Positions 28,251-44,461 of a DNA stretch of 64,000 nt are shown here, piece by piece. The notes under the pieces were generated by a model. It did not search any database. It worked only from the letters and a program-made list of their open reading frames with translations, and was not told where the DNA came from. Every line of letters begins with the position of its first letter. Position 1 is the stretch's first letter. The stretch covers positions 954-64,953 of the forward strand of contig JAFUYI010000009.1 of NCBI GenBank assembly GCA_017470585.1, in the 5' to 3' direction. The DNA comes from Alphaproteobacteria bacterium (GTDB lineage Bacteria; Pseudomonadota; Alphaproteobacteria; RF32; CAG-239). The position numbers and the translations under genes were made by a program.

Positions 28251-29875
28251 TGGGTTCTTACCACACTGCAAAATACACCGTTACGTCCCAATTTGCTGCA
28301 GACACCGTCGCCCTCATCAAGGGTCTTAACAGGTCCTATTCTCAAGTGGAACAGTTCTTTGCCCTGCCCGTCGGCCGGAGCATCTACCGAGAAGAACGGA
28401 TCATAGTTTTTCAAAATTTTTGAGTATTTATCGGACAAGCTGTCCCACAGATTCTCAAGGGTTTCCACATTAGCATCGGTGCCGAGTTCAATGGAGATAT
28501 TAGACCCTGCCCCATCGGCAAAACCGGAGCCGTATTTATAGCGATTTGAAAAATCACTGGCAGCAGGATCAAATTGCTGCGTATTCTGAATCCGGTGCAT
28601 CTTGGAGTAATCAAAATCACCGTTTGCTCCGTAACCGTTAGCATTTCCGGCTCCTCGTCCCGCCATAGAGTATTCGGGAACAATTACCTCACTGCCTCCG
28701 ATATTGATGTCAAACTGTCCGCTCGGGTAGTTTGCGGCATCCCCCATAACACCGGAATTAAAGTCAGGATATTCCGCCGAACCGGCTTTAATCTGCTTTC
28801 CGCCCGGTATTTTAGCACCGCGATCCCATTCTTTGGCTGTAATATCATCGGCATAGCTGACATCATCCAATCCGGCATCATCGGAACGGCGCAATTTCAG
28901 ACACACGATTCTTTTACCGTTGCGCAACACCATATCACCTATGGCTTCAACGATAATCAAACGGTTATTCGGACCTTTGGTGCGGAATCCGACCGGAACT
29001 TCCATTCTTTCCACAATCAGCGTTACAATCGGACGCTGTGTCATATTAAGCGATTTGGCTCCCAAATCAATATAAGTGAAAATATCATCCCGCCAAACAC
29101 GTTCCGGAGCAATTACAACGTCTTCCGGATGAGGAACATAAACCTCTATATCAAAACGAAATTTGGTCGGGTCAAGAGGAATATTCTCAACCCAACTGTT
29201 TTTTTGGTTACGTTTTGTAAAAGTGGAATCAACGGACTTTCCGGAATTACCGTAATATTTACTGGCATTAACGTGTGAGCCGCCGTTTCCCCCTATAGCT
29301 CCGGCTCCGCCCGATTCGGCTCCTATTACCTCAATATCCACAATCGCATTGGTAAGACGTTCGGTGTTAACCCCCTCACTTCTGGCATAGAACACATAAC
29401 GATTGCCGGAACGTCCGAATACGATAATATTGGTATCAACCCCGACATTTGCCCCTTTGCGCGGATATAAAAGCAATGTACTGGGACCTGAAATCTGTCC
29501 GTCAAAAGTGGAATTATCACCGATATAAATATCCTCAATCATCTCCCACTCGGGGAAGTTAATCATCGTAATCATACCTTCGCGCAGACGCAACGGCAAG
29601 ACCAAATCCGGCGACCAATAATATTTGGAATAAGCCGGCTTGCTCTGCCCTTCACCGAGATTCTGCAAAGGATCAAGCCATGCACTTTGCATCATCCCCA
29701 AGGAATTAAATCCGGCATAGCTCATATCCATAGGCTGGTATTGCCCTTGTGATTGATCCGCATTTTGGTCCATGCTGCTAATGGTTGCCTGTGCTTTAAC
29801 CTCTCCCGAAAACAATATCAGAAGCAGGCTTAACATACTTATTTTCATAGACTTTGATAGCATAGCTTTATCCAC
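28247..29875 (-). CDS. virB9: VirB9/TrbG-like T4SS outer-membrane core protein with C-terminal Gly-rich extension
   Basis: 542 aa; signal peptide (MKISMLSLLLILFSGEVKAQA). The central region aligns to the VirB9 C-terminal domain (VIAPERVWRDDIFTYIDLGAK...RPIVTLIVERMEVPVGFRTKGPNNRLIIVEAIGDMVLRNGKRIVCLK). An extra ~170-aa G/N-rich C-terminus ends in a SPOR-like ...FHLRIGPVKTLDEGDGVCSKL segment (weak). Confidence 0.7.
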   Translation of the reverse strand: MDKAMLSKSMKISMLSLLLILFSGEVKAQATISSMDQNADQSQGQYQPMDMSYAGFNSLGMMQSAWLDPLQNLGEGQSKPAYSKYYWSPDLVLPLRLREGMITMINFPEWEMIEDIYIGDNSTFDGQISGPSTLLLYPRKGANVGVDTNIIVFGRSGNRYVFYARSEGVNTERLTNAIVDIEVIGAESGGAGAIGGNGGSHVNASKYYGNSGKSVDSTFTKRNQKNSWVENIPLDPTKFRFDIEVYVPHPEDVVIAPERVWRDDIFTYIDLGAKSLNMTQRPIVTLIVERMEVPVGFRTKGPNNRLIIVEAIGDMVLRNGKRIVCLKLRRSDDAGLDDVSYADDITAKEWDRGAKIPGGKQIKAGSAEYPDFNSGVMGDAANYPSGQFDINIGGSEVIVPEYSMAGRGAGNANGYGANGDFDYSKMHRIQNTQQFDPAASDFSNRYKYGSGFADGAGSNISIELGTDANVETLENLWDSLSDKYSKILKNYDPFFSVDAPADGQGKELFHLRIGPVKTLDEGDGVCSKLGRNGVFCSVVRTQ

Positions 29876-29876
29876 C

Positions 29877-30605
29877 TTATTTTACTTTATTGTAACTCAA
29901 AGAATAATTCACAACCGTAAATCCGACCGGATTTTTAAGACGTTCTTTGAATTTTACGCTTTTATAACGATACATAACTTTTAGCGAGGCCGTCCAATAA
30001 TTTATCTCCGGAGTCTTGGAATCGGGATACATATCACGGGTTTCATACTCAACCTGCCATACTCCGTCGCTTAACTCGTTCACGGTCATAATCCGCACAT
30101 CGCGCATCATACGCCGCGTGCGGATAAGTTCCAAAGCCCTGCCGGCGGTGTTTTTTATAAAATCATCATACACTGCAGAGGAGGACATTTCCTGAATCGC
30201 TCCGCCCGCGCCCCATCTGGCCTCAACCTCGGGAATATCGCGGTTAAAAGAGCTGCGCATTAAAACATACTGCCGCACAAAAGCCTCGGTTATAGCTCTT
30301 TCTTCGGTTAAATTACGATTAACCGGCTGAATATTATAAACCTGCTCTTCCTTATTTTGGAACGTCATCAAAAACGGCTCGACACGATACAGCGGGATAA
30401 CCTGCAGAATCGCCAAGAGCAAAATCAGATTACAACAAAAACTAACGGCCGTAATAATAGCAAAAGCACGCGCAGTCCACAGATAGCGTTTTTCGGCAAC
30501 ATTGGCGACAAAAGCCTCATTTCCTGCCCCCGAATCGGGCTTAATGCTTTTTCCGGTCAACAGGCGTTGATTATTATTACGATTCGTCACAACGGGTGCG
30601 GGCAT
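29877..30605 (-). CDS. virB8: VirB8 family protein (paralog a)
   Basis: 242 aa; cytoplasmic N-terminus, one TM, periplasmic NTF2-like domain (...EAFVRQYVLMRSSF...WQVEYETRD...WTASLKVMYRY). Confidence 0.8.
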   Translation of the reverse strand: MPAPVVTNRNNNQRLLTGKSIKPDSGAGNEAFVANVAEKRYLWTARAFAIITAVSFCCNLILLLAILQVIPLYRVEPFLMTFQNKEEQVYNIQPVNRNLTEERAITEAFVRQYVLMRSSFNRDIPEVEARWGAGGAIQEMSSSAVYDDFIKNTAGRALELIRTRRMMRDVRIMTVNELSDGVWQVEYETRDMYPDSKTPEINYWTASLKVMYRYKSVKFKERLKNPVGFTVVNYSLSYNKVK

Positions 30606-30617
30606 AATTTCAATCCC

Positions 30618-30806
30618 TTAAATAGTTTCAACAAACCAATCCGGCAATGTTTGCGGCAATTCAAGTTGCATACAGGCGCAAGGAGAAAGCTTTAATTCAT
30701 CGGTTGCCTTACCGATTTCAACCGGCTCCGGCTCATAATAGGAACCGAAAATACCGCAACCGGCAAGCAAGGCAACAGCAAGCAACAATATTAACTTTTT
30801 GGTCAT
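30618..30806 (-). CDS. Small lipoprotein, VirB7-like
   Basis: 62 aa; signal with lipobox LLAGC, Cys-containing mature peptide. The position between two virB8 genes and upstream of virB9 is typical for VirB7. Confidence 0.5.
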   Translation of the reverse strand: MTKKLILLLAVALLAGCGIFGSYYEPEPVEIGKATDELKLSPCACMQLELPQTLPDWFVETI

Positions 30807-30903: not shown

Positions 30904-31662
30904 TTATTGGAATTGTACTTCACTCTGATTATATCTTGTAACCGTAAAACCTAAAGGATTTATTAACCGACGACCGACAAAAAGACGTTCCGGGAAAAAA
31001 TATGAGGTAACGGATGCCGTCCAGTATTTAACGTTAAGAATAAGGGAGCCGGTCTCTCCGTTGCGGTTGCGCTGCGACACCTCATAAGTTTTAAAGTCAA
31101 CTTTCCACACCGGACTTTTTTTTCCGCCGACTTTGCCCACCGAAATAATTTCCACTTCTTGGCTTATTTGTTCATCAATATTGCGTTGCCAAACATTTTC
31201 CCGATATTTATTAAATTCCTCAAAAATAGGATCGCTTGATAAAAAATGAACGATTCCCCCCGGATACCAACGCGACATCATCTCCAACTGGTCGTTAATG
31301 ATGGTATTGCGGTATAAAACATATTGGCGGACAAATATCTCCATCAATTTTTCTTTTGAAGCCATATCATGAGCAATCGGTTCATAGCGAACCATATCAT
31401 CGGAATCCCTTTGATTGATAATCAAAAACGGCTCAACCGACACTCTCGGGGCAAGATTAAACAATGCCAGAGAGGCTGACAAGAATAAAGCCAAAGACAG
31501 CGTTGCCGTAAATAAGAACAATCTTGAAAGCCACATATAATAATACATCTTGGCACTGCGTTTTTCACGCTCATTCTGCCCGATAAAGCTGTATGTTTTG
31601 CCGCTTTTATCGGTTAAGACCTGAACTTTGGTTGTTTCAAGAATATTTCCTAAACTGCTCAT
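30904..31662 (-). CDS. virB8: VirB8 family protein (paralog b)
   Basis: 252 aa; TM (LFLFTATLSLALFLSASLALF) plus NTF2-like domain (...EIFVRQYVLYRNTI...WKVDFKTYE...WTASVTSYFFP). Confidence 0.75.
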   Translation of the reverse strand: MSSLGNILETTKVQVLTDKSGKTYSFIGQNEREKRSAKMYYYMWLSRLFLFTATLSLALFLSASLALFNLAPRVSVEPFLIINQRDSDDMVRYEPIAHDMASKEKLMEIFVRQYVLYRNTIINDQLEMMSRWYPGGIVHFLSSDPIFEEFNKYRENVWQRNIDEQISQEVEIISVGKVGGKKSPVWKVDFKTYEVSQRNRNGETGSLILNVKYWTASVTSYFFPERLFVGRRLINPLGFTVTRYNQSEVQFQ

Positions 31663-31677
31663 TTCCCTGTTATTCTC

Positions 31678-34600
31678 TTAATAAGGCATACAAACCGGCT
31701 GTTCGTATTCATCAATTTCTTTTCTTATTGAAGCATAGCCCTCATTTCTCGCTTTGGCAATCACTTTTTGATTAGCCTGTTCACTCCTTATCTTTTCGGT
31801 CAGCGGACTGCCGGATTTAGTATTGGCGGTTACACTCACCAAAGCTTGCGAATCCTGAATCATAGCCTTATAAGTATTATTGATTTTATCATAACGTTCT
31901 TTAACTGTTTCATCGTTGTAGTTCACGCGCGATAACTCACTTTGCACCTGTCCCATCATGGTATTCTTACGTTCCTGAAGTTTGCGTAAGACATAATTAT
32001 AATCATCATCACGGGAAAGATCCAGATTATCTTTAAGTGTAAAGCCCATCTTACCGAACGTTTCGCGCAAGCTCTCAACAAAATCATCTATACTGCCTTT
32101 TAACTCCGTTAAGTTCTTGTCAATCTGATTTTCTTTATCCACAAAGTGCAGGAAATCGCCTATCTGATTGGTTGTAAACATCGCACGCTGATAGGTGTTT
32201 TCCTCGGCAGATAATTCATATTTACCTGTTTTTTGCGCTTTTTCCTCTTTGGCAATAAGCTTTTCAAAACCCTCATGCGGACGGTCATTCAACAACAATC
32301 GCCCTTTTTTATAGCGCAGAAACATTCCCAACTCACTGCTCACCGGCTCGTTTATTTCTCCGGCGGCATTAGCTTTAACGCTGCCTTTAACATCTCTGTC
32401 ATAGATAATATATGTTTCCAAAATATTGCCTATTCCAACCGTATGTCCGGCAATGGTCAAATCTTTACAGGTCTGCAAGCTCTTGAGCTTCTGCAAGTTT
32501 TCGGCACTGAATTGCTTTTGTGTATTGACAATGGAATATTTACCTGAATTATCCATATCTATCATATAGCTGCCGACTTTACAGGGAAGTATAATTCCCC
32601 GCATATAGGCTTTAACTTCGCCGCCTTTTTCCAAGATTCGTCCCAAATCAGCTCCTCTTTCCACATAAGCTTTATCGGAAAGCAACAGCTGCCATACATA
32701 CGGCTGACTTACACCGTATTCAAGAAACGCTGTACTGGTGAGCTTACCGTCACTGCCTTTTTCCAAATTACGGTAATCGGTAGTATCAAAATGCACCATA
32801 TCACGGACAGTAGGATAGTGTGCCGTCAACGGAGCTTTGGGAGCGGTAAAGTCTCTGGCTTTGGCTGGAAGTCCTGCAAAATACTGTTCGTCAGCCGCAT
32901 CGCAGGTATATTCGGAACATACGGACTTATTCAAGGTCGTCTTGAAAGCAGTAGTCAGCATGGAAACGATACCGGACGAACCGACATTAAAGGTACCGAT
33001 GGCCACAGCAACATCGTGATTAAAGCAGGTTTTCGGTAAATCTTTGAGTTTGCCCACCAAATCGGTGTGCATTTTAACGATTTTGGGATTGTTATAAGTC
33101 ATATATAACTCATCGTTTTCACTCATCTTCATCACGTCTTCATAGTGATCGCTTATCAATCCCGCGGCACAACTTCTGGCTCTGTCTATCAAGCTGTCGG
33201 CTTTTTTTACCATATCAAGCACATCACCGTCATCAAGCTTTAGAGCCTTATATATGCCGGCAAGCTTCGGCGCGCTGTCTATAGCATCTTGCAGAGCCTG
33301 AAGTTTATCATTATATTCGGTTTCAATCGCCGTAATATCTTCTTGATATTTTTGATTGAGGGTATTGATTTTATCATTATTCGCCTCAATTTTGGCACGA
33401 ACCGAATCCCGGTTTTGTTCATACTGCTTTAATTTGGCACGCAACTGCCCCAACTCCGTTATTTTGGTCGCCTGCAGATTGCCGGCTTCCTCTAATGTAA
33501 GTTTTGCCATCGTATAAGTAGAAGAACTGGTATTTGTACCGCGTGCGTTTAAGGCCTCAATTTCCCGACGGGCATTTTCCACTTTACTCTCGTTTAATGC
33601 GCGTTCTCCATCGGCGGTATTTATTTTTTGGGTTACATCGCCTATCATCGCCGCCCACGCATCCAATTGTGTGTTAAGTGCAGTATTTGAGGTCTTATAA
33701 GGAAGTATTGCCGCAGCCTGTTTAGCCTTGATTGAAGCCAACGCCGAAGCTTTGGCGGCGAGCAAACCGGTCGACGAGGAAGATGAAGACGTATTCCCGC
33801 CCAACGCATCTTCAATCAACGCCAGACCGGCGTTAATTTTCTTTTTATCAACGGCTATCGGGTTGCCGCTATTAATCTTTTTGGCAATTTCCAAGGCCAG
33901 CAAATTAACTTCTATTCCGTCAATATAATTTTTCATATTATTGTATTTGTTTTCCAAATACTGGTCATAATATGCCCTTTGGTCATTCCATAAAGGATAC
34001 GGGTGAGCCGGTTTGCCGTATATCGGCTTTTGTGAATTTTGATCCTCAACCAAAATCTGCGCCGCTTTGCGACCTATCTGCCAATTCAGGAGTTCAACCT
34101 CACGCACCGAATCGGAAAAAGCCTGCGCCCGGCTGGGATTTGCCAAAACGTCATCATCCGAGCCGGAAGATGTGTCCACCGGATCATAATCCACCTCTGT
34201 GAGCCTGTCCGAATCCTTTGAAGTATCAATCTCAACCTCACCGAAAGCATCCAAATCAAACTCATTACCCACCGAAGCGTTAGCAACCTGATAGGCAGAA
34301 ATTGCCCAGCCCGAAAGACCCTTGCGGCTGTCATAATCACCGGGATCTTTCGGAGGAGTACTCTGTCCGAACCATACCATATTAGGTTCATCATAGCGAC
34401 GACCGATATACTGAATCACACATTGATCAGAGGTTTTAATCGCTTCAACCGCCTTGGCACGAAGCTCGGTATAAAGCCGATACTGCGTATAAACATCTTT
34501 ATAAGTGGGCATTCTCTGCAAGAGATTATGCGCTTCCATCGCCTCATTTACATATTTTTGCGTATCGGCAATAATTCCCAAAGCTTTAATCTGTGTTTCG

Positions 34601-35604
34601 CTACCACTGAGAAGAGAGGCCGCTTTCGGAGCTTTTGCATCAACAAACTCACTGCGGATATTGCTTGTCGGAATCACCGCCCGATGTGAAGAAATCGGAG
34701 CCGACGCATTTTTATCCTCAACACTTTCCGCTGCGGTTTTTGCCGCGGAGAACGCTGTATCTATTTTTAACTCTTTTTTCAATTCCTTGGCTGCTTGCGC
34801 CTTGGTTTTAACTTGCGAGGAAATTCCCTTAAACGCGGAATTTTGCATCATTTGGGCAAAGCCTAACCGTTGATGCGACATAATAAGAGAAGTTTTGCCC
34901 GAAGAAGAGCCTTTGGGTGCCGGAATAACCGTTCGCGGCTGACGTAATTGTCTGGCCGCCAAATATTGATTCTGCATTGCCACAAGCTGTTCGGTAATCT
35001 TTAAGATGTCATTGAACTTGCGATTTGCCATATAAGCATTATAAGCAACGGCGTTTTCATCTTCGGGATCGGCGGCATCGCCTCCGCCGGCGGTTGCCTC
35101 CTCACCGAATTTTTCAACATCTTTACGCAGATTTGAAAGTTGCGCCTCAAGCTCAATAATTGAGGTTTTCATCTCAACCAAAGTATCGTAATAAAACTGC
35201 AGAGCTTTCTGCTCATAGGCTTTATTGATACGTTCATCATCGGAGGGATATTGTAAAAATAATTCCCTAAAAGCCTCTTCAACCGCCTCGGCACTGTATA
35301 TGTCAACCGAGGAGCCTTCGTCAAAATCCTTACTGCCCGGGACTTTACTCATAACTTTGGTTAATTTTCCGGCATATTTATCTGCCATCGCTTTAACTTC
35401 AGTAACACCCTTTTTGACTTCCGCAACAACGCCTTCTTCAACGGCGGTAAGCTGTTTCTGTACGGTCTGAACGGCGGAATTGGCATCACCGGAAAAATCA
35501 AACGTTGTTCCCGCTACAAGCTGGGCTCTCGCTTGCGGTGCAACACTCAAAAGCATCACAACCGTTAAGCCTGCCAAATGATTTTTTAATTCGGATATTC
35601 TCAT
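31678..35604 (-). CDS. Large secreted coiled-coil protein (1308 aa), T4SS-operon-encoded; function unknown
   Basis: Signal peptide MRISELKNHLAGLTVVMLLSVAPQARA. No predicted TM helices; long helical and Ser/Ala-rich tracts; several Cys in the C-terminal third. No family recognised. Confidence 0.5.
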   Translation of the reverse strand: MRISELKNHLAGLTVVMLLSVAPQARAQLVAGTTFDFSGDANSAVQTVQKQLTAVEEGVVAEVKKGVTEVKAMADKYAGKLTKVMSKVPGSKDFDEGSSVDIYSAEAVEEAFRELFLQYPSDDERINKAYEQKALQFYYDTLVEMKTSIIELEAQLSNLRKDVEKFGEEATAGGGDAADPEDENAVAYNAYMANRKFNDILKITEQLVAMQNQYLAARQLRQPRTVIPAPKGSSSGKTSLIMSHQRLGFAQMMQNSAFKGISSQVKTKAQAAKELKKELKIDTAFSAAKTAAESVEDKNASAPISSHRAVIPTSNIRSEFVDAKAPKAASLLSGSETQIKALGIIADTQKYVNEAMEAHNLLQRMPTYKDVYTQYRLYTELRAKAVEAIKTSDQCVIQYIGRRYDEPNMVWFGQSTPPKDPGDYDSRKGLSGWAISAYQVANASVGNEFDLDAFGEVEIDTSKDSDRLTEVDYDPVDTSSGSDDDVLANPSRAQAFSDSVREVELLNWQIGRKAAQILVEDQNSQKPIYGKPAHPYPLWNDQRAYYDQYLENKYNNMKNYIDGIEVNLLALEIAKKINSGNPIAVDKKKINAGLALIEDALGGNTSSSSSSTGLLAAKASALASIKAKQAAAILPYKTSNTALNTQLDAWAAMIGDVTQKINTADGERALNESKVENARREIEALNARGTNTSSSTYTMAKLTLEEAGNLQATKITELGQLRAKLKQYEQNRDSVRAKIEANNDKINTLNQKYQEDITAIETEYNDKLQALQDAIDSAPKLAGIYKALKLDDGDVLDMVKKADSLIDRARSCAAGLISDHYEDVMKMSENDELYMTYNNPKIVKMHTDLVGKLKDLPKTCFNHDVAVAIGTFNVGSSGIVSMLTTAFKTTLNKSVCSEYTCDAADEQYFAGLPAKARDFTAPKAPLTAHYPTVRDMVHFDTTDYRNLEKGSDGKLTSTAFLEYGVSQPYVWQLLLSDKAYVERGADLGRILEKGGEVKAYMRGIILPCKVGSYMIDMDNSGKYSIVNTQKQFSAENLQKLKSLQTCKDLTIAGHTVGIGNILETYIIYDRDVKGSVKANAAGEINEPVSSELGMFLRYKKGRLLLNDRPHEGFEKLIAKEEKAQKTGKYELSAEENTYQRAMFTTNQIGDFLHFVDKENQIDKNLTELKGSIDDFVESLRETFGKMGFTLKDNLDLSRDDDYNYVLRKLQERKNTMMGQVQSELSRVNYNDETVKERYDKINNTYKAMIQDSQALVSVTANTKSGSPLTEKIRSEQANQKVIAKARNEGYASIRKEIDEYEQPVCMPY

Positions 35605-36875
35605 TTGTTATCTCCTCCTTCGGTTGCGCTTTGAGCTGTTGCATCCGTACCCGCGGCAGGAGCATTTTTGCGCTCTTGTTCGGCATAATCGGAAATGGAT
35701 TTAAGAGTTTTCTGCAAAGGATCTTTTGAAGCATCGAGCAAGCTCGGATCAAGCGGAGCTTCTTCCTTATATTCCGTTGCCGGCGTAGTTTCAACCTCGT
35801 ATTTATCTCGCGACGGATCAAACTTATAATTATCAAAATTAAAGTTTGAAATCGCCGTGTCGGCATTTATTTTATTAAATCCGCTGTTTGCCAAATCATG
35901 GCTGATGTCCAGTTTAAGCTGTTGCAAGACCAGCTCTGTGTAGTTAATCAATGCTAACATATTCATTTTTTTAAGCTCAATTGCGGCAGCGGTTTTGGCG
36001 GCACTCGAGCCTTCCAAATCCGATGATTTTTCTTCGGAATCCTTGGCTTTTTTATTATCGTTTTCAATATCCATACGAATTATGGCCGTGCGGTTTAAGA
36101 CCGTTGCCATATCTTCCCAGAAAAACGAATAATAAAGTTTACGATAATTCAAAACGACATTGGTTGTAACTTCGGTATCTTCGGAAGGTGAAATCATACT
36201 TACCGTTCCTTTAAGATCCTCGGTCGAGTCATAATTACCGGCAATAGAAGTGATTTTGGTCAATGTTCCTGCGGCACTTTCCAAAAGCTGATCTTTTGCA
36301 TCCTCCAAACTCTTCAGTGTTTTTTCGCTGTCTTCCTTGATTTTAGCCAATTTTTTGGCGCGATCTTCTTTCAGCTTTTCTTTTTTCTTCTGCAGTTTGG
36401 TAATTTTTTTCATATTCTTGGCGGCATGCTCGGGATGAGCAAGAGTATCCTGCTCCAGTTCTTGAATATTTCTGTCAATCTCGGCGATTTTTTTCTCGGA
36501 AGTCTTGGTTTCATTATCGGCATCCTGCGCCGCCTTATTTTGCGCATCGGTTTTCTTTTTATTGACTTTTTTGAGTTTTGAGGCAATACTTCCGACTTCT
36601 TTGAAATCCACATCCTTGTAACTGTCCAAAGTTTTGGAGTAATCATAGAACTCTTTGGCTCCCTTGCCGTATTGAATGGCGGTTTGAATAAAAGTGCTTT
36701 CCTCAATTTTGGCTTGAAGTTTGGCAACTTTGGTTTTAACCGTGGTGATTTTCTTTTGAATCCCCACGCTGATGTCTTTTTTAAACGGAGGCAAAAGGAA
36801 AGCTTGGCTTTCCGCACCGCATAAGCCTATCAAAAGAGTCGCCGCCATTGCTGTTAGTAGAGATTTTTTCATCAC
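35601..36875 (-). CDS. Secreted Lys/Glu-rich coiled-coil protein (424 aa), T4SS-operon-encoded
   Basis: Signal peptide MMKKSLLTAMAATLLIGLCGA; highly charged helical sequence; 4-nt overlap with the downstream gene. Confidence 0.5.
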   Translation of the reverse strand: MMKKSLLTAMAATLLIGLCGAESQAFLLPPFKKDISVGIQKKITTVKTKVAKLQAKIEESTFIQTAIQYGKGAKEFYDYSKTLDSYKDVDFKEVGSIASKLKKVNKKKTDAQNKAAQDADNETKTSEKKIAEIDRNIQELEQDTLAHPEHAAKNMKKITKLQKKKEKLKEDRAKKLAKIKEDSEKTLKSLEDAKDQLLESAAGTLTKITSIAGNYDSTEDLKGTVSMISPSEDTEVTTNVVLNYRKLYYSFFWEDMATVLNRTAIIRMDIENDNKKAKDSEEKSSDLEGSSAAKTAAAIELKKMNMLALINYTELVLQQLKLDISHDLANSGFNKINADTAISNFNFDNYKFDPSRDKYEVETTPATEYKEEAPLDPSLLDASKDPLQKTLKSISDYAEQERKNAPAAGTDATAQSATEGGDNK

Positions 36876-36884
36876 GCGCCTCCT

Positions 36885-37529
36885 TTATTCGTCTTCTTTC
36901 GGCGGCTGCATATTGCGAGCCATAAGCCGTAAAACAAATTCTTTTGCTGATGCCTGCATATCGTTAATACGATTCAGACGGCGTGATGCTTCCGTTGCTT
37001 CTTTAGTGGCTTTTTTTATCATTTCGCGACTGTCTTTGGCATCTCCCGTCGACTCTTCGGGTTTGGCATCTTTGTTTTCTTTTGCCATATTGGTACGCAA
37101 AGTAAATGCGTAGGCATACATACGAGTCAAATACCCTCGAAGCATTTCATCATTAAGGTCTTTATTAGCCTGCGCCGCCTCAATCTGATTGGTTTCCGCA
37201 TTCTGCGGCATGGTAGATTGCACAGCATCCGAAAGTTTTCGCTTGTCTCCCAATGCAGCAGCCAAAGACTTCGGCTCCGTAACCGAAACAGCATCAAAAT
37301 TCAAACCGCTGCTCTCGGCAACTCCGGTTAAAGCTCCGATATCGCCTTGACGTGCAGAATTATAAGTTGATTCAATGGTTTGCAATTTTTGCTCAATAGT
37401 TTGTTTTTTGGCTTGAACATCCTCCAGAAAAGTCAAGGATGTTTCGACAAACTCAAAGTCGGCTCGAGCTTGAGGAATACTGACTATTCCCCATCCGATT
37501 GCCAATATCCACAAAGCTTTCTTCATCAC
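36885..37529 (-). CDS. Secreted helical protein (214 aa), possible VirB5/TrbJ-like minor pilus component
   Basis: Signal peptide MMKKALWILAIGWGIVSIPQARA; size and all-helical character fit VirB5. This is a positional/compositional guess only. Confidence 0.35.
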   Translation of the reverse strand: MMKKALWILAIGWGIVSIPQARADFEFVETSLTFLEDVQAKKQTIEQKLQTIESTYNSARQGDIGALTGVAESSGLNFDAVSVTEPKSLAAALGDKRKLSDAVQSTMPQNAETNQIEAAQANKDLNDEMLRGYLTRMYAYAFTLRTNMAKENKDAKPEESTGDAKDSREMIKKATKEATEASRRLNRINDMQASAKEFVLRLMARNMQPPKEDE

Positions 37530-39223
37530 TTGCCTCCCGCAGTTTCATCCTTCGCACTTTCCAAAACATCGCTCGGAGCAGCACATATTTGCTGAACGCT
37601 GTCCCAGATAATCTGCGATGATATAAGAGTTGACATACGGTTCAAGAGAATCTGGGTTTGTTCATTGCTCATCGCTAAAACCGCAGTATCATCACGGGTA
37701 TCGGTGGAACCGGCACTTGATTCTTCCTGTTCATCCAAGGTTTCATCATAATTGGAAGCCTCGTGCTTACTCCCCGTTGCCTCGGTAAGAAGTGCCAGCA
37801 TGGTGGTATAAATCATTCTTTCGCACTCTTTGCGGCTGTTTAAAGCATCAAACTGATTTTTGGCATTGTTTTCAGCCACAATTTTGTTGATGCAGGCTTT
37901 AATTTTATCAATGTCTTTCAAATCGGCAACACTTATGCCGCAACGTTCCGGAAGCGGAGAAATAAAGGTTCCCTTGGAGTTGTAATTTACCCCTTTGGTA
38001 TCATCATCCGACTGGCTGGCAAATCCCAAATGTTTGGAAAAATAAACCGTATTGCTTGAAAGCCTGTCTTTGAGAACTTTAGCGGGAGAAACTCGAAATC
38101 CTTTTCCTTCAACCGCGGGAGCTAAAGCCCCATCTTCAAGAGATTTAACTTTATTTTGAAGTGCATTTGCTTTTAAATCACCGGCTTTTAAGGCACTTGC
38201 CTTATTAACCTGCTGCGGCTCGGCAGTCAAGCTTACAGCCGCGCCCGCCTTGTTATCAAGAGTTTTCAAGGCCTTATCATTAAAGGCTTTAGGAGCCGCG
38301 GCAACCTCGGCTTTAATATCTGCAGCAGGTGCAACACCGAAAGCTTTTCTCCCTGTGCTTTCTGCCGGAGAGAGAGCCTTACTGTCAACCACATCAAATT
38401 TCTTTAATGTTGTCTTATCGAGAGCTTTTAACATCTCCGGTTTGGCGGAAGCTGTACCAGCCGCGGCAACCGGCACGGCTCCGGCTTGGCTGACAAGTGC
38501 CGAGTTATTCACAGCCCTTCTTCCGTCAACGGCAACCGCTTTATCAAGAGATGAGGCATCAAAACGTGTTGCGGCAACACTCGGAGCGGGCATATTGGCA
38601 AAAGCCGCGACTTCCGTGTCAACTTCCGATTCATCATACATATATCCGGACGAATCGCCCATCTCGGCAATATCGTGCGGCAAAGCCTGTGCGGCTTGCG
38701 CGGCAGCGGCGGCATTCACGCTTCCGAGGGTGGAAACACTATGAGCATTATAATCGGAATCCGATTGTGCGGTATATTCTTCGCCGTAATCGCCTTCCTC
38801 ATAGTCACCGTCTTCATAGTCTTCTTCTTCGCCGCCGGAGGAGCCTTGGTATTTATCCATCAATTCCTGATATTTTGCTTGAGCTTCGGCTTTTTTAGCC
38901 TGCGCCTTATTATAAAGTTCGGTTCCCTCTGCCAAACGTTTTTTTCCGTCAGCAAGAGCTTTTTTAGCATCTTCAAGATTTTTGCCGTATTTCTTTTTAA
39001 ATTTAGCAAAAGTGCCTGCATGATCGCCGACAATCGCATTAAGATTAGTGCCGTTCGTAATGGTTTGTTTAGCCTGTTCAATCTCGGTTGCTCCGTCCGA
39101 AACAATGCTTACGGTGCCGGCAATATTTCCGGGATCCATTGTCACCAAAGCACTTGCCGGAGTAACAATCCCCAGCATAGCGGCGCAAGCCAAAACCATT
39201 TTTGCAAACCTGAAATTCATCAT
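37526..39223 (-). CDS. Secreted low-complexity acidic/Ala-rich protein (565 aa), T4SS-operon-encoded
   Basis: ORF 37526-39253. The likely start is MMNFRFAKMVLACAAMLGIVTPASA at 39223, which has RBS ggaggg. Contains a DYEDGDYEEGDYGEEY acidic repeat and A/V/K-rich tracts. Confidence 0.5.
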   Translation of the reverse strand: MMNFRFAKMVLACAAMLGIVTPASALVTMDPGNIAGTVSIVSDGATEIEQAKQTITNGTNLNAIVGDHAGTFAKFKKKYGKNLEDAKKALADGKKRLAEGTELYNKAQAKKAEAQAKYQELMDKYQGSSGGEEEDYEDGDYEEGDYGEEYTAQSDSDYNAHSVSTLGSVNAAAAAQAAQALPHDIAEMGDSSGYMYDESEVDTEVAAFANMPAPSVAATRFDASSLDKAVAVDGRRAVNNSALVSQAGAVPVAAAGTASAKPEMLKALDKTTLKKFDVVDSKALSPAESTGRKAFGVAPAADIKAEVAAAPKAFNDKALKTLDNKAGAAVSLTAEPQQVNKASALKAGDLKANALQNKVKSLEDGALAPAVEGKGFRVSPAKVLKDRLSSNTVYFSKHLGFASQSDDDTKGVNYNSKGTFISPLPERCGISVADLKDIDKIKACINKIVAENNAKNQFDALNSRKECERMIYTTMLALLTEATGSKHEASNYDETLDEQEESSAGSTDTRDDTAVLAMSNEQTQILLNRMSTLISSQIIWDSVQQICAAPSDVLESAKDETAGGK

Positions 39224-39302: not shown

Positions 39303-41735
39303 TCAGGCAAGATTTAAATATTTTGTAACAAAGTTTTCTTCACCATACTGCTTAATGAGGTCTTCAACCAATAAAACATTCTTACGGCTTGAGTTATAAA
39401 GCTTCAAATACGGTCCCAATCCGCCTAAATTTACATCCAAAATAACCGATTCGCCGGTTGCCGGACGGGAAAGCAGAATAGCGTACGGAAAATCACGATA
39501 CGATTTACCGAACACGAAGTCAATTTCACGCTGATTCAAGTTCCAGTTGGCATAATCTTCCGGTCTTGCTTGCGGGTTACGGAAGAAGATTACGGTTTGG
39601 CATTGACCGCGGATCACCTCTCCCACACCGAGCGAATCGATAATATTCGGTTGTTGGAAAGCACAAAGATATGCCTGTCTTTTTTTACGTCCTTCTTGTA
39701 AACCGATCATAAAGTAATCCCTGAACATCGGGTGTTTAAGCATCGGTGCGGTTTCATCAATCATAATCAAAGACGGCACACCGGTTTCTCCGGTTTCGGA
39801 TTGAATACGGTGCATAATATAGCTGATAACCGCCGGAGCCAAAGTATCATCTTCAAAAATATGCGTAAAGTCAAACGCCATAAACCGTTTGGTATGCAAA
39901 TCAAGGCTATCGCTGGCGGCGTTAAAAATTTTACCGTACTGATCGGGGTTAACCCAGCGATATAGCTCACGGCGCATATTTCCGGTCGGCGAGAAACAGC
40001 TCTTATAAAGGTTGGACATAACGCGTTCTTCAGGGCGCAGATAATCAAACGCCGTCGTAATAGCGCGGGCAATCTCACGTTCGGAAAGCGCATCATCAAC
40101 CATGGTGATTGATTTCATCCACCGCCGCAGGAAAGCCCTGTTATTCGGTGTCGGAGCGGCATCAAACGGATTTAAGGAAACATTTTTCTCATCACCGTCA
40201 AAACCGATATAGGCACCTCCGACTGCACGAGTAAAAATCTCCGCACCCAAGTGACGGTCAAAGAAAAACACTTTCAAATCTTTGTGGCGCATAGCCTGCC
40301 CTGCCAAGAATGTCAAAAGGGTTGTTTTACCTTGTCCGGTAGGTCCGATAATGCAACAGTGTGCAACGGCAGCATCTTCGGAGGAAACATGGAATTGGAA
40401 ACGATACCCCGAACCGGTGGTTGTGCGGAAAGTCGTAATCGCCCCCGGACCCCAGTCGCATTTATTAAAGCCTTCGGCGGGTTTATCAAACGACACTGCC
40501 GCCGTAACCACACGCGACAAATAGCGATAAGTCCGCGGATAGGTGTCGTATGTCGGAAATTGATTGAAAAACGTTGCTTGTGTAACCCATCCTTCTCTGA
40601 CCGGAGTTACACCGAAAAGGCGGCAAATTCTCTGCACTTCGCTTTCGGCAAATTCGATTTCCGCTTTGCTTTTACCTTTTAAGACCAACGAAAGAGAATA
40701 TTCGGTTAACGCCTGATAGTTGGCATCACTATCCTCAATTGAACTCATCGCATAATTATATTGATCAACAACTTCCTGCGAAAAGCTGGTCATACGCGCC
40801 ATGTTGCGCTGCTGAATTAAAAGCGCGCGCGCCGTGGGGCGGTATATCGGCTTAATATTGTGAAGCATTGTAAGTTCGCAATCAATTGCCAACAACGAAA
40901 CAATCATTGATTCGTCCATATAATCTCCGGGAGAACGAATCCCCATGGTTATGGCAAGAGTTTCCTCATCGCCGGAGAAAAATCTAATCATCCCGTTTTC
41001 ACCGGTAAAATGAATATGATCGGCAGTCAGCATCTCGTTTAATTGCGCCCCCTCGGCATGACCGACTTTAGGATCGGGGGTTGACACCGGCGAACAAATC
41101 CGGCTGAAAATATGAAACGGACTGTCAAGAGGTGAGCTGTCCTCACTTTCAAACATAGCACGCACACCGTATTCGCTTAAAGTAGCCAGCAATGTTTGCG
41201 AGGCGTAATTCAAATCTTTTAATGCCTCGGGACGATCGGGAACCGATATAATTATATAGTGCGAGTTACTGTAAACCCTATCAAGAGTTGACTGCCATGT
41301 ATAAGCAACTTTTTCCAAAATTTTATTATCGAAAGTATTTTCGATAACATCGGCAGGAATCCTCTCGCGCAAAGTTATTACCCGCGCCGTAACCTGCAAA
41401 TCGGACATACTGTCGAGCCAAGATTTCCTTGCCTCGGCCATGGAAACATTCTTTTCCTCCGTGGCAAACGCCAAGTCCAAACCCTCAACCTTAAAAACAC
41501 GAGCAAACGAACCGTTATAGCAACGGATGGTCATGCCGTCGGACATCAGTTTATTAAAAGGGAGAAAATCCGCAACTTTCGACTCGTTTGGCTGCGGCAA
41601 TATCGTTCGCCCGAGTTTGGTAATCCACAACCCGGCAAACGCCGCGGCAGAAATAAAACCCAACAATGTTACGATGACTTCTTTGCTGCTTAAACCCTGC
41701 ACAAAGATGTTAAAAAAATCAAAATCAGGGTGCAA
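39303..41735 (-). CDS. virB4: T4SS ATPase VirB4/TrbE/CagE family
   Basis: 810 aa; Walker A IIGPTGQGKTTLL, Walker B ...LIMIDE; N-terminal membrane-associated region. Confidence 0.9.
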   Translation of the reverse strand: MHPDFDFFNIFVQGLSSKEVIVTLLGFISAAAFAGLWITKLGRTILPQPNESKVADFLPFNKLMSDGMTIRCYNGSFARVFKVEGLDLAFATEEKNVSMAEARKSWLDSMSDLQVTARVITLRERIPADVIENTFDNKILEKVAYTWQSTLDRVYSNSHYIIISVPDRPEALKDLNYASQTLLATLSEYGVRAMFESEDSSPLDSPFHIFSRICSPVSTPDPKVGHAEGAQLNEMLTADHIHFTGENGMIRFFSGDEETLAITMGIRSPGDYMDESMIVSLLAIDCELTMLHNIKPIYRPTARALLIQQRNMARMTSFSQEVVDQYNYAMSSIEDSDANYQALTEYSLSLVLKGKSKAEIEFAESEVQRICRLFGVTPVREGWVTQATFFNQFPTYDTYPRTYRYLSRVVTAAVSFDKPAEGFNKCDWGPGAITTFRTTTGSGYRFQFHVSSEDAAVAHCCIIGPTGQGKTTLLTFLAGQAMRHKDLKVFFFDRHLGAEIFTRAVGGAYIGFDGDEKNVSLNPFDAAPTPNNRAFLRRWMKSITMVDDALSEREIARAITTAFDYLRPEERVMSNLYKSCFSPTGNMRRELYRWVNPDQYGKIFNAASDSLDLHTKRFMAFDFTHIFEDDTLAPAVISYIMHRIQSETGETGVPSLIMIDETAPMLKHPMFRDYFMIGLQEGRKKRQAYLCAFQQPNIIDSLGVGEVIRGQCQTVIFFRNPQARPEDYANWNLNQREIDFVFGKSYRDFPYAILLSRPATGESVILDVNLGGLGPYLKLYNSSRKNVLLVEDLIKQYGEENFVTKYLNLA

Positions 41736-42015
41736 ATTTATTCCCCTTTGTCTTATATAAGTTATTGGTTACCCGGTAGGTTTGTCCGAAAGCCTGAATC
41801 ATATTGGAGATATGCGGTTCTTTGGTACCCCATGCGATAATCACGCAGTGAACGAGAAGAATCGTCATAATAAAGATAAGCGGGTTAACATCAAAAGCAC
41901 CGATTGAGGTAAACATAACCGGAAATTGCATTCCCAAGTTAAGCAACACCGGCAGAAACGGTCCCCACAAAATCTTCGGTGGACTTGCCACTGCTTTTAA
42001 TATCGGTTCTCGCAT
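41725..42015 (-). CDS. virB3: VirB3/TrbD-like small membrane protein
   Basis: ORF 41725-42075. The probable start MREPILKAVASPPKILWGPFLPVLLNLG... is at 42015 with ggagg 5 nt upstream. Two hydrophobic segments; overlaps the virB4 start. Confidence 0.65.
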   Translation of the reverse strand: MREPILKAVASPPKILWGPFLPVLLNLGMQFPVMFTSIGAFDVNPLIFIMTILLVHCVIIAWGTKEPHISNMIQAFGQTYRVTNNLYKTKGNKFAP

Positions 42016-42102
42016 TATTCCTCCATAAAAATTGATTAACTCGATTTTACAATAAAACTTTTTTGATTGCAACAAAAAACCTCTAAAAAATTTATTTTTT
42101 TA

Positions 42103-42368
42103 TTGCCAAGCGAATATTTTTATGTTATTGCTTGTTTGAGGTGAATAATTTTACCTTGAGGTTTCACAGCCTCTTTATATCCGTCAAAGCCGAAACGTAA
42201 TCCGGCTGTTCTGACTTTTATGGTCGGAAGATTGCGAAATAAGGCTTGCCAAATACGCAATACTATTTGATATAAATAGCTGTGAACTTCCGACCACCTC
42301 TAGGAGAACATCTCCCAAAGGTGGTTTCTTTTATTAAAGTTATAAAGAAACTAAAAAAGGAAGTTTTT
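42103..42368 (+). promoter_or_regulatory. Putative promoter plus structured leader of paralog 4 (P1 degenerate)
   Basis: P2 GAGG/CCTC, outer helix ggtcggaag/cttccgacc, P3a ATTGCG/CGCAAT, inner hairpin CTATTT/AAATAG, terminator CCACCT...AGGTGG + tttcttttat, RBS aaggaag. Divergent to virB3. Confidence 0.5.
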
Positions 42369-42854
42369 ATGATGAAAAATTATATTTTAATGCTAGGTAT
42401 TGCCGCGGTGTCCATAGTTTCTTACTGTGCATACGCCAGCAATTCCGCCACAATGACCGTAACCGCAACAATAGCTCATGATGTGAGTTTAACAGTTACA
42501 CGTCAATATAAACTGGGGACAATTACGATTGATCCGAGTCAAACCAGCGGTTCAGGAATAACCACAGGCAACGATGTTAATGGCGGTATAATATCTGTCA
42601 GCGGATATGAAGTTGGTTTATTTACCGCCAATATTCCCAGCGAATATTCTGTTCCCGGACCAGAGCCCGAGGAGGTTTTAAGTATAAGTCCAAGCACCAT
42701 GACAATGGGCGGAATAACATTTAAAGATCCGTTTATTATGTGGTATTCAGGGACAACCTTTGCGGTCGGATATGATAGTATGTCATATACGGGACTTGTA
42801 CCGACTGCGGGAGATTATGAAGACAGCATTAGCATCTCCTATACCGCACCGTAG
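42369..42854 (+). CDS. Secreted beta-rich protein, paralog 4 (no Cys in mature part)
   Basis: 161 aa; MMKNYILMLGIAAVSIVSYCAYASNSATMTVTATIAHDVSL...GLFTANIP...SISISYTAP. Start is ATG at 42369 or 42372. Confidence 0.75.
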   Translation: MMKNYILMLGIAAVSIVSYCAYASNSATMTVTATIAHDVSLTVTRQYKLGTITIDPSQTSGSGITTGNDVNGGIISVSGYEVGLFTANIPSEYSVPGPEPEEVLSISPSTMTMGGITFKDPFIMWYSGTTFAVGYDSMSYTGLVPTAGDYEDSISISYTAP

Positions 42855-42860
42855 ATGTTA

Positions 42861-42890
42861 AAAAGGAGAGGAATTTTCCTCTCCTTTTTT
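42861..42890 (+). terminator. Rho-independent terminator after paralog 4
   Basis: aaaaaggagaggaattttcctctcctttttttt. Confidence 0.65.
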
Positions 42891-42947
42891 TAGATTTTTT
42901 TAACGCTCGATACAATTGCGGCGCGCAATGGAATAAAAAGGCATATT

Positions 42948-43361
42948 TTATTCTGCCTGATTATAGTCAAGCAACATTTCCGCCGCTTTGGATAAAAACG
43001 CCGAACGATTGTTGGTAACCTCATCAATTCGCGACATAAGGTCATCATTCATATAAACCGTATATTTGCTAGGCTTTCCGGTTGGAACATATGAAACAAA
43101 TGCAAAAGCGTATTCTTCGTCGTCCGTCCATTCATTCCAATCCTGCCATTCATCTTTTATTTGCCCGATATTGCGCGGTTTTGGCAAAGGTTTGCCTGCC
43201 CGCCTTATATCATCAAGACGAATATTTAATATCTCTATGGCCATTTTATATGCATGATCAATATTTTCGCCACTGGTATAGCAATCCGGAATATCCGGAA
43301 AAACAACACCGACGGAACTTTTTCCCTCTTTGGGTAAGATAAATAATGCCAAGTATTTCAT
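42948..43361 (-). CDS. hicB: Type II antitoxin HicB family (second copy)
   Basis: 137 aa; MKYLALFILPKEGKSSVGVVFPDIPDCYTSGENIDHAYKMAIEILN... Homologous to the 7413-7820 product, with the same WQDW...EW motif. Confidence 0.7.
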   Translation of the reverse strand: MKYLALFILPKEGKSSVGVVFPDIPDCYTSGENIDHAYKMAIEILNIRLDDIRRAGKPLPKPRNIGQIKDEWQDWNEWTDDEEYAFAFVSYVPTGKPSKYTVYMNDDLMSRIDEVTNNRSAFLSKAAEMLLDYNQAE

Positions 43362-43390
43362 CTCAATTTCCTTTCCTTTTGGGGTAAGGC

Positions 43391-43585
43391 TTATTTCAGC
43401 CCCGCCTTCTTCAAAATATTTGTTGCAACTTTGGGATGAACATCGCCCTTATGATACGGAACGGCAATTTTTCCTTCTTTTGTTTCGTGTTCAAATTGGT
43501 AATGACTCCCCTCTGTATTCACTACATACCAACCATCTTTTTTTAATATCTTCATCAGCTTTTCCGCTGTATATCTCACAGGCAT
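43391..43585 (-). CDS. hicA: Type II toxin HicA (intact second copy)
   Basis: Probable start MPVRYTAEKLMKILKKDGWYVVNTEGSHYQFEHETKEGKIAVPYHKGDVHPKVATNILKKAGLK (64 aa) inside the longer ORF 43391-43627. Confidence 0.75.
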   Translation of the reverse strand: MPVRYTAEKLMKILKKDGWYVVNTEGSHYQFEHETKEGKIAVPYHKGDVHPKVATNILKKAGLK

Positions 43586-43674
43586 TTTGCTTTCCCTTTT
43601 AATGCTTATGTTTGTTTTATACCGCAAATTTGCGGTATTGTCAAGTATTTTTATAAAGGCAAAATTTTTTTTGC

Positions 43675-43927
43675 TTTACATAAAAGATTTTTTGTGCTAG
43701 TTTAGACCTGAAGTGAATGAAAAGTCACTTTGAGGTCTGACAGCCTCTTTGATAGTGTCCGACAAGACAAAAAATTGCTTCTAACCATATTATGGGTTGG
43801 AAGGTGAAGGAATAAGGATTGCCAAATACTTCACACTGTTCTATCAAACAGTTGTCAGCTTCCAACCCCCTCGTTTGTTTGCCGAGGGGGTTTTTAGTGA
43901 TAATATATTAAAAAGGAAGTTTAGATA
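43675..43927 (+). promoter_or_regulatory. Promoter (-35 TTTACA, 17 bp, -10 TAGTTT) plus structured leader of paralog 5
   Basis: P1 AAGTGA/TCACTT, P2 GAGG/CCTC, outer helix gggttggaag/cttccaaccc, P3a GTGAAG/CTTCAC, inner hairpin CTGTTC.../...AACAG, clean terminator CCCCTCG/CGAGGGG + T5. Confidence 0.6.
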
Positions 43928-44461
43928 ATGAAAAATTATATTTTAATGCTCGGTGTAGCGGGATTAGCCTTTGGCTCCTATTGCGCATACGCCGACAATT
44001 CCGCCACAATGACCGTTACTGCGACTATCGCACATGATGTTAGCCTAAAGACTACCGGGGACATAAACCTCGGCACAATTACTGTTAATCCGGCTTATAC
44101 AGGATGGACAGATTGGCAATACAGCGATTCGGGAGTAGTCAGTTATATCAACAAAGGTGCGATTATTTCAGCTCCGGATATTACGGTAGGAACTTTTACT
44201 GCCAATATTTCCAACCCCGAAGCTTGCAGTACCGCAAACGATTATTGCGGAGGATTATATCTTGAATCGGATAACGGCGATGATTTTCTCAGTCTTTTTA
44301 CCGAAAGCGGGAGTGACAGTGCTTGCTTTTTTTATATAAAATACAGCGGTGACGGCAATAACTTTAAGGTTTATCCGCGAAATTGCACTATATATGACAT
44401 ATCAAAAGTCACTCCCGATAGACACACCGGTACATTGATAATCAATTATAATGCTTCATAA
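43928..44461 (+). CDS. Secreted beta-rich protein, paralog 5
   Basis: 177 aa; four conserved Cys (EACS...DYCGGL, SACFFYIKY, NCTIY); C-terminus GTLIINYNAS. Confidence 0.8.
   Translation: MKNYILMLGVAGLAFGSYCAYADNSATMTVTATIAHDVSLKTTGDINLGTITVNPAYTGWTDWQYSDSGVVSYINKGAIISAPDITVGTFTANISNPEACSTANDYCGGLYLESDNGDDFLSLFTESGSDSACFFYIKYSGDGNNFKVYPRNCTIYDISKVTPDRHTGTLIINYNAS

Follow-up and report, generated by a model that had tools for sequence, protein, structure and literature searches.

In type IV secretion systems (T4SSs), VirB5 forms the tip of the stalk and of the pilus, and VirB6 forms the base of the stalk. Which proteins take this place in an operon whose virB4 and virB8 genes are separated by four unannotated open reading frames (ORFs)? 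The operon in question is a T4SS operon on the minus strand of a 64,000-nt stretch of Alphaproteobacteria bacterium contig JAFUYI010000009.1 (all of it together hereafter the window), and the four ORFs occupy positions 31678-39223 of the same strand:

37526-39223, minus strand: P565, 565 amino acids (aa), first gene after virB4
36885-37529, minus strand: P214, 214 aa
35601-36875, minus strand: P424, 424 aa
31678-35604, minus strand: P1308, 1308 aa, last gene before virB8

We propose that the four genes probably encode Sec-exported structural components of a chromosomal T4SS, situated in its VirB5/VirB6 slot. Profile comparisons indicate that P565 is a VirB5-family protein split by a disordered insert of ~300 aa, and none of the four proteins resembles VirB6.

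Four exported proteins between virB4 and virB8

Our check of the ORF list and translations bore out the positions and the minus-strand orientation that an earlier, sequence-only reading of this DNA had given for the four ORFs. The longest ORF of P565 extends to 39253, and public gene calls begin at 39220 (564 aa); the four genes are also called in three independent public assemblies of the species, with lengths of 564, 213, 423 and 1308 aa. Stop and start codons overlap by four bases at two of the three junctions (37526-37529 and 35601-35604), and the four genes are predicted to be translationally coupled.

A Kyte-Doolittle hydropathy scan (19-residue window, threshold 1.6) found a single segment above threshold in P565, at its N-terminus, and none in P214, P424 or P1308; in the family average for P1308 the maximum, 1.81, falls in the signal peptide, and values elsewhere reach 0.96 at most. 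AxA-type cleavage sites are kept across orthologues (ASA/L, ARA/D, SQA/F and ARA/Q, cleavage at the slash). Judged by these conserved sites and hydropathy profiles, the expectation of a signal peptide on each protein and of no transmembrane helices held: all four carry a predicted Sec-type signal peptide and no other hydrophobic segment. Conserved Cys residues are found in P565 and P1308, and they fit an oxidising compartment.

Scanned against Pfam and NCBIfam, the four proteins gave nothing above threshold, and PDB sequence-profile searches with all four families gave coiled-coil or designed-helix noise only. F-type accessory proteins (TraN, TraG, TraH, TraU and others) and Cag-specific proteins were without a Pfam or NCBIfam match here and gave nothing beyond that noise in the PDB profiles. 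The three kinds of search likewise detected no toxin, enzyme or effector domain and no strong homology of any of the four to families outside T4SSs; the four families are without a Pfam or NCBIfam family, or an informative name, in any source searched. Two features of composition that had been pointed out from the sequence are present as well, the acidic tract EEEDYEDGDYEEGDYGEEY in P565 and the K/E-rich character of P424 (14% Lys, 8% Glu). At their C-termini, P565, P214 and P424 end in most orthologues in a similar short acidic tail, D/E-rich and then EGD / GGK / GENK (in the window at ~37529-37560, 36888-36920 and 35604-35640, respectively); P1308 ends instead in a near-invariant YEQPVCMPY. 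CagH, CagI and CagL have a common C-terminal motif, which the shared tail of P565, P214 and P424 would recall.

P565 as a putative VirB5-family protein with an insert

P565 can be divided into three segments:

38819-39148, minus strand: residues 26-135, VirB5-like N-terminal module, motif LPT/VTxDxGNIAGT followed by helices
37907-38818, minus strand: residues 136-439, acidic/Tyr tract followed by an Ala/Pro/Lys-rich low-complexity insert
37529-37906, minus strand: residues 440-565, helical C-terminal module with Cys 444, 467 and 547 and an S/TxDxRDDxxV motif

The N- and C-terminal modules are conserved in the family alignment (A2), and the middle is hypervariable; the insert is unalignable and varies in length among orthologues, and AlphaFold2 gives the insert region a predicted local distance difference test score (pLDDT) below 50 and no regular secondary structure.

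The reference for comparison was an alignment (A8) of the VirB5 family from conjugative relatives of the locus, described below; many of its members match PF07996, and its profile matches TrwJ of R388 (PDB 7o3v, E 4e-5). Aligned to it with hhalign, which also gave the percentages quoted for other profile pairs in this text, the P565 family scored 96.4%. The mature N-terminal module scored 93.1% against mature VirB5 (E 3e-7); P565 minus its signal peptide and residues 136-439 scored 95.0% (E 3.6e-8) in an end-to-end alignment of 194 columns, in which the S/TxDxRDDxxV helix of P565 pairs with the DLRTDVQ.N motif of VirB5; and the C-terminal module alone gave a weak match (26.7%). A hidden Markov model of the N-terminal module scores both Ea_251, a VirB5, and X, a second slot protein of the conjugative relatives, above all 300 shuffles. 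Because the end-to-end alignment obtained after removal of the insert pairs both modules, we read P565 as an interrupted VirB5-family protein. It has the Sec signal peptide and the gene position directly downstream of virB4 that mark members of the family, and it is the only one of the four with profile homology to VirB5 across the whole mature domain.

A match of the P565 N-terminus to DUF4141 is weak (E 0.005, 3 of 23 members) and serves as a lead only. Dozens of separate 90%-identity clusters of the 568-aa P565 orthologue (P0032-P0097) come from one human-gut species, 'Azospirillum sp.' MR368-like, and suggest an unusually high within-species allelic diversity of the gene.

P214, P424 and P1308

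It was P214 that the sequence-only reading had described as VirB5-sized and helical. Its size and helicity stand, and the clearest VirB5 relative is P565 instead (95%): P214 scores 85% against VirB5 with its signal peptide and 27% without, co-linear over 168-188 columns, and on this comparison it is weakly VirB5-like. Residues A23-D24 of its signal peptide region are invariant across the family. Mature P214 and mature P424 align at 82.5% (E 1e-5, 126 columns), and the two proteins appear to be related through a common helical region of ~126 residues. The mature N-terminus of P424 is conserved as FLLPPFKxD, and a 'PP-x-x-x-D' motif is present in both P424 and X, which is a motif-level lead only. 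The idea that all four proteins are paralogs with a VirB5-like N-terminus (85-86%) was rejected for P1308 and P424, the signal being gone once signal peptides were trimmed.

Full-length homologues of P1308 number 27; they are 35-56% identical to it, unnamed or 'hypothetical', and without meaningful Pfam domains. The AlphaFold2 model of its residues 110-1308 (pLDDT 74.5, predicted TM-score 0.59) contains two regions of note:

33286-33777, minus strand: residues ~610-773, two helices of ~78 residues (model residues 501-578 and 586-664; block pLDDT about 70-91)
32278-32919, minus strand: residues ~896-1109, alpha/beta domain (strands at model residues 899-996; most 10-residue blocks at pLDDT about 73-91)

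The two helices would form an antiparallel coiled-coil hairpin, as read from their adjacency in the sequence. Invariant in the family alignment of the alpha/beta domain are Cys 896, 901, 1008 and 1046 together with many Gly, Pro, Asp and Tyr residues. As modelled, P1308 would be a conserved orphan that combines long helical hairpins with a Cys-containing alpha/beta domain.

A cluster without a polytopic VirB6, and its conjugative relatives

None of the four had been thought to resemble VirB6/TrbL, and this assessment proved sound: no protein of the set has the four to six or more hydrophobic transmembrane helices expected of VirB6, or a match to PF04610, and the signal peptide is the only hydrophobic segment. 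The negative result is meaningful because the same tests recognise a genuine VirB6, the 348-aa polytopic protein of Paracaedimonas (PF04610, 29 bits vs. a 25.9-bit cutoff). No VirB6-like ORF is present in the 64-kb window, whose polytopic proteins are BacA, MatE and ComEC only, and the surroundings of P1308, out to about 10 kb, contain no polytopic ORF in any of 29 related loci. Two candidates were rejected: a 274-aa polytopic ORF of the window (55915-56739), which is BacA, and a long VirB2-like protein encoded upstream of virB3 in related loci, which has pilin topology (signal peptide and two transmembrane helices).

The nearest plasmid relatives of the window's VirB4 are those of Microvirga pMVF16-3 (38% identity), Sphingosinicella p1 (35%), an Erythrobacter aureus plasmid (35%) and Paracaedimonas plasmids (30%). 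Five conjugative clusters were examined, namely Erythrobacter aureus NZ_CP031358.1, Sphingosinicella p1 NZ_CP035502.1 and three metagenomic contigs; their layout is MobA/MobL, DnaB-like, VirB2, VirB3, VirB4, VirB5, X, VirB7, VirB8, VirB9, VirB10, VirB11, VirD4, and in one metagenomic locus MobA/MobL was not seen (the upstream flank is shorter), nor VirD4 after VirB11. TrbL/VirB6 is absent from the cluster in all five. Their VirB5 proteins have 246-252 aa, and X, which has no transmembrane helix and no Pfam match, has about 460-517 aa after two annotated starts are extended upstream; the RefSeq starts of these two are too late, and the signal peptide and the conserved N-terminus PPPCIxxD are lost with them. 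X is encoded at the following positions:

L033, 19231-20709
L035, 15250-16632
L036, 8395-9906
L037, 9744-11297
L038, 9751-11259

The VirB5 domain is matched over its whole length by the N-terminal half of X (98.8%, E 5.6e-17; 98.7% without signal peptides). X thus appears to be a VirB5 paralog, a VirB5 domain with a C-terminal extension of ~270 aa, that occupies the VirB6 slot. P424 and P1308 were rejected as orthologues of X, there being no detectable similarity.

A more distant cluster, that of Paracaedimonas, has a PF04610-positive polytopic VirB6 in the usual slot. Because the compact clusters of the conjugative relatives are without VirB6, while the more distant Paracaedimonas retains it, the subfamily appears to be characterised by a cluster that has lost VirB6, or from which VirB6 was displaced, a trait older than the four-gene expansion in the gut clade. 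The term 'lineage-specific', applied earlier to this locus, therefore suits the four-gene set and not the VirB6-less layout, which is common to MobA/MobL-VirD4 clusters of Sphingomonadales-type plasmids and metagenomic contigs. Our literature searches turned up no paper on this system or on any Gram-negative T4SS lacking VirB6; a 2025 review describes VirB6 as 'highly conserved among all T4SSs' and the VirB6 pentamer of R388 as bearing the VirB5 pentamer, a platform for VirB5 and the pilus (PMC12857230).

The slot of Microvirga pMVF16-3 (L032) holds a VirB5-like protein of 273 aa and two further proteins (L032:19216-19902 and 19932-21218). One of these two, of 228 aa, has three or four transmembrane segments and no Pfam match, and might represent a VirB6 reduced to a minimal remnant; the other, of 428 aa, is secreted and carries LRDDFVVN, a motif like that of VirB5.

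Conservation, synteny and selection

When one representative genome of each GTDB species was scanned, 29 loci emerged, and in all of them the four genes keep the same order. The carriers are metagenome-assembled genomes of uncultured human-gut and ruminant Alphaproteobacteria (about 27 species-representative genomes), under varying labels ('Azospirillum sp.', Rhodospirillales, Alphaproteobacteria). Complete loci have the order VirB2, VirB2, long VirB2-like, VirB3, VirB4, P565, P214, P424, P1308, VirB8, VirB7, VirB8, VirB9, repeat protein, VirB10. Median identities to the proteins of the window are as follows:

VirB4: 88%
VirB3: 80%
VirB9: 78%
VirB8 copies: 69-76%
the four proteins: 35-40%

Pairwise ratios of nonsynonymous to synonymous substitution rates (dN/dS) range from 0.02 to 0.17 in the four genes; most core values lie at 0.004-0.09, and two higher ones both fall on very short genes. 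These ratios and identities together indicate that the four are functional and constrained, and held far less tightly than the core; gene-wide positive selection was not seen in the four by pairwise dN/dS. The four genes appear to diverge much faster than the core under purifying selection, and their G+C content agrees with that of neighbouring genes. Synteny, dN/dS and the identical calls in three assemblies all indicate that the four ORFs are real genes.

The closest genomic relative of the locus is L003 (CAVIWQ010000001.1), with VirB3 and VirB4 92-94% identical; it is filed as 'Bacteroidaceae bacterium' and is probably a mis-binned or mislabelled metagenome-assembled genome.

The operon and its genomic setting

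The remaining genes of the operon are the following:

41728-42015, minus strand: VirB3-like, 96 aa (orthology and position)
39303-41735, minus strand: VirB4 (PF03135)
30904-31662, minus strand: VirB8, first copy (PF04335)
30618-30806, minus strand: VirB7-like lipoprotein, 62 aa, lipobox LLAGC and conserved LKLSPCAC motif (orthology and position)
29877-30605, minus strand: VirB8, second copy (PF04335)
28247-29875, minus strand: VirB9 with SPOR (PF03524, CagX; SPOR match weak, 19.2 bits vs. a cutoff of 21)
22752-28271, minus strand: beta-flower/YD-repeat protein, 1839 aa (Pfam repeat families)
18439-22755, minus strand: VirB10, 1438 aa (PF03743 TrbI domain and beta-flower repeats)
17458-18426, minus strand: VirB11 (PF00437)

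With VirB3, VirB4, VirB8, VirB9, VirB10 and VirB11 encoded within one operon, the system is of the VirB/Trb type (MPF-T-like). The locus is chromosomal, because its flanks are housekeeping genes (uvrB, fliN, leuS, holA and trxB). The VirB3-like protein has 69-92% identity to the orthologue before VirB4 across all related loci. The virB8 gene is present in two copies with the gene of the 62-aa lipoprotein between them, and the SPCAC motif of this lipoprotein is common to the VirB7-position lipoproteins of plasmid relatives (Mv_58 and Ea_68). The C-terminus of VirB9 (residues 463-540) has a below-cutoff match to SPOR, a peptidoglycan-binding domain (E 0.0016), as well as a Gly/Asn-rich linker; a SPOR domain on VirB9 would be unusual. 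The 1839-aa protein encoded between virB9 and virB10 has an N-terminal transmembrane helix, an Ig-like (ASH / choice-of-anchor D) segment and more than 20 beta-flower/DUF3659/YD-like repeats, with 46-72% identity across the clade, and VirB10 has ~11 beta-flower repeats N-terminal to its TrbI domain. The repeat protein and the 1438-aa VirB10 point to a strongly expanded machine and are reminiscent of CagY, which is repeat-rich.

No VirB2 pilin, VirB6 or VirD4 is encoded within the 64-kb window. Among the related loci L001-L031, those that reach upstream of virB3 have VirB2/TrbC pilin genes, usually two, before virB3, and most of them add the third, long VirB2-like protein, of about 110-760 aa, whose signal peptide and two transmembrane helices are followed by a variable G/S/T/A-rich C-terminal extension. 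In the window, synteny is broken immediately upstream of virB3 (42016-44461), and neither a pilin gene nor a vestige of one is found in the 64 kb; the pilin position is taken by the gene of a divergent secreted Ser/Thr-rich protein of 190 aa (42282-42854), together with a HicA/HicB pair and trxB. This pilin-less arrangement is identical in three independent assemblies and is thus not an assembly artefact.

Elsewhere in the window, a 370-aa Fic/DOC-domain protein is encoded at 51711-52823, ~10 kb away from the T4SS operon; the Bartonella Beps are among the T4SS effectors that carry a Fic domain. At 9100-11447, the genes of a 576-aa C-5 cytosine DNA methylase and of a convergent serine resolvase/invertase overlap by 4 bases at their ends and may constitute a small mobile or phase-variable module.

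Role of the four proteins and rival explanations

The genes lie between virB4 and virB8, are coupled and syntenic, and encode exported proteins, and for these reasons a role in the VirB5/VirB6 slot is supported. We envisage that P565, once exported to the periplasm, would assemble on the central axis of the machine, probably joined there by P214 and P424, and that the resulting complex would serve as a VirB5-like stalk or pilus tip in the manner of TrwJ in R388. The elongated module contributed by P1308, a coiled coil with a head, would either extend the stalk or cylinder or act distally as an adhesin. The fast but constrained divergence of the four suggests exposed, partner-contacting surfaces. 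Of the roles suggested earlier for these proteins (pilus-tip or adhesin component, periplasmic scaffold part, secreted substrate), the pilus-tip or stalk reading finds backing for one protein, P565, through its VirB5 homology.

Several observations weigh against a structural role of all four in this slot. P565 itself has no PF07996 match at E≤1, nor have P214, P424 and P1308, whereas the control Ea_251 scores 30.3 bits vs. a 24.7-bit cutoff; 50 distant members of the P565 family are without a PF07996 match too. When 1.84 billion representatives were searched with a HMMER profile of this family, 142 members (cluster representatives) were gathered, with no bridge to PF07996 among them. The AlphaFold2 model of full-length P565 (pLDDT 37.5, helical at both ends) is unusable for fold comparison. 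The similarity that had seemed to connect all four is lost on trimming of the signal peptides, after which only the P565-VirB5 and P214-P424 similarities survive: mature P424 scores 1.7% against VirB5, the N-terminus of mature P1308 scores 0.6%, neither has a link to X or P565, and for neither could a link to any T4SS family be detected. Foldseek searches of PDB and BFVD with the P1308 model yielded generic long-helix matches only (to SMC, tape-measure and dynein-like proteins, at TM-scores no higher than about 0.15), and low-ranked matches to ClyA-type pore formers (AhlB and MakA) were not used as evidence. The case for a structural role of the four is indirect; a VirB6 could possibly be encoded elsewhere in the genome; and a role at the pilus tip in this species is uncertain because no VirB2 pilin gene is present in the window.

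If a canonical polytopic VirB6 did lie elsewhere in the chromosome, where VirD4 and the VirB2 pilins of this species must also lie should they exist, the four proteins would be accessory decorations of an expanded machine, similar to the species-specific components of Cag, and not stand-ins for VirB6. This is rather unlikely in our estimation, although T4SS genes are already scattered here (VirB2 and VirD4 are not in the 64-kb window, although relatives have VirB2 upstream of virB3), other parts of the machine are enlarged too (VirB10 with 1438 aa, the repeat protein with 1839 aa and VirB9 with a SPOR domain) and VirB6 is highly conserved among T4SSs (PMC12857230). Set against it are the lack of a polytopic ORF in the ~10 kb around P1308 throughout the 29 loci and the compact clusters of the relatives, which run from the relaxase or the adjacent DnaB-like gene to VirB11 (to VirD4 in four of the five) and are also without VirB6; and where a more distant relative does have VirB6, the gene is in the usual slot. 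The proteins might alternatively be passengers: some or all of them, above all P1308, would be Sec-dependent periplasmic substrates that the T4SS moves across the outer membrane, much as pertussis toxin is exported from the periplasm by the Ptl system without VirD4 and VirB5 (PMC12857230). The Sec signal peptides on all four, the lack of a VirD4 adjoining the operon, the Ptl precedent and an evolution faster than that of the core are in keeping with such a role; we nevertheless consider it improbable, given that P565 is by profile a homologue of VirB5, a structural subunit, that the genes stand inside the operon amid core genes and appear translationally coupled, and that Pfam, NCBIfam and PDB profiles reveal no toxin, enzyme or effector domain. 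It is scarcely credible, finally, that the four ORFs are unrelated inserted cargo or spurious or decaying frames. Their lack of database annotation and the low-complexity stretches of P565 could be so explained, but the order is kept in all related loci, dN/dS is well below 1, conservation is full-length with many invariant residues, and G+C is like that of neighbouring genes.

Beyond the structural role that we favour for the four lies a wider proposal, which we hold as tentative and regard as somewhat doubtful: a single T4SS lineage, made up of the gut chromosomal systems and the MobA/MobL-VirD4 clusters, would operate without a polytopic VirB6, its stalk and channel being built entirely from Sec-exported VirB5-family paralogs. 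The stalk and channel parts may then be VirB5 and X in the plasmids, and P565, P214 and P424 together with P1308 in the gut clade. Such a lineage, if real, would contradict the standing of VirB6 as a universal T4SS subunit; for the subfamily as a whole, mobile conjugative clusters included, either VirB6 is hidden elsewhere or a different stalk/channel solution is in use. What is new at this locus is the content of the T4SS slot: a putative VirB5 with a disordered insert of giant size, P214 and P424, which are helical and related to each other, and the conserved 1308-aa orphan. The four families, found in a large expanded T4SS of gut and ruminant bacteria, are candidates for structures that contact the host or neighbouring cells.

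Comparison with known systems

With VirB6/TrbL (PF04610), the extended VirB6 proteins of Rickettsiales and DotA, the four have in common the gene position from virB4/virB5 to virB7/virB8, and the extended VirB6 proteins are very large, as is P1308; unlike VirB6/TrbL, the four have no hydrophobic helices past the signal peptide and no PF04610 signal. The relation to VirB6 would be at most one of functional replacement and not of membership.

Host-associated chromosomal systems offer another parallel. Bartonella Trw has amplified trwJ-trwI-trwH genes and H. pylori Cag has CagL/CagI/CagH; like the window, they combine adjacent VirB5-like or VirB5-associated secreted proteins with rapid divergence in a host-associated chromosomal T4SS. 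Both keep a VirB6 homologue (TrwI and CagW), unlike the cluster of the window, and PDB profile searches gave no sequence similarity of the four to Trw or Cag proteins.

The VirB5/TrbJ family (PF07996), which includes TrwJ of R388, TraC of pKM101 and VirB5 of A. tumefaciens and is marked by a fold of a three-helix bundle plus appendage and by pentamers on the stalk or pilus tip, resembles P565 in its signal peptide, in a post-cleavage motif hydrophobic-P-T/V-x-D with an N-terminal helix, in a C-terminal helix with an S/TxDxRxDxxV motif, and in a gene placed directly after virB4. Family members have about 220-250 aa, vs. 565 aa with an insert of ~300 aa in P565, which also differs in having three further secreted proteins beside it and no VirB6 partner; the likeness is one of sequence.

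The VirB5 and X clusters differ from the window in having two slot proteins vs. four and in being mobile, with a relaxase and, in four of the five, an adjoining VirD4. They include, with Microvirga, the nearest plasmid relatives of the window's VirB4 (35-38%), they have the SPCAC motif of VirB7, and, like the window, they place secreted proteins that appear to be VirB5-family paralogs in a VirB5/VirB6 slot from which TrbL/VirB6 is absent.

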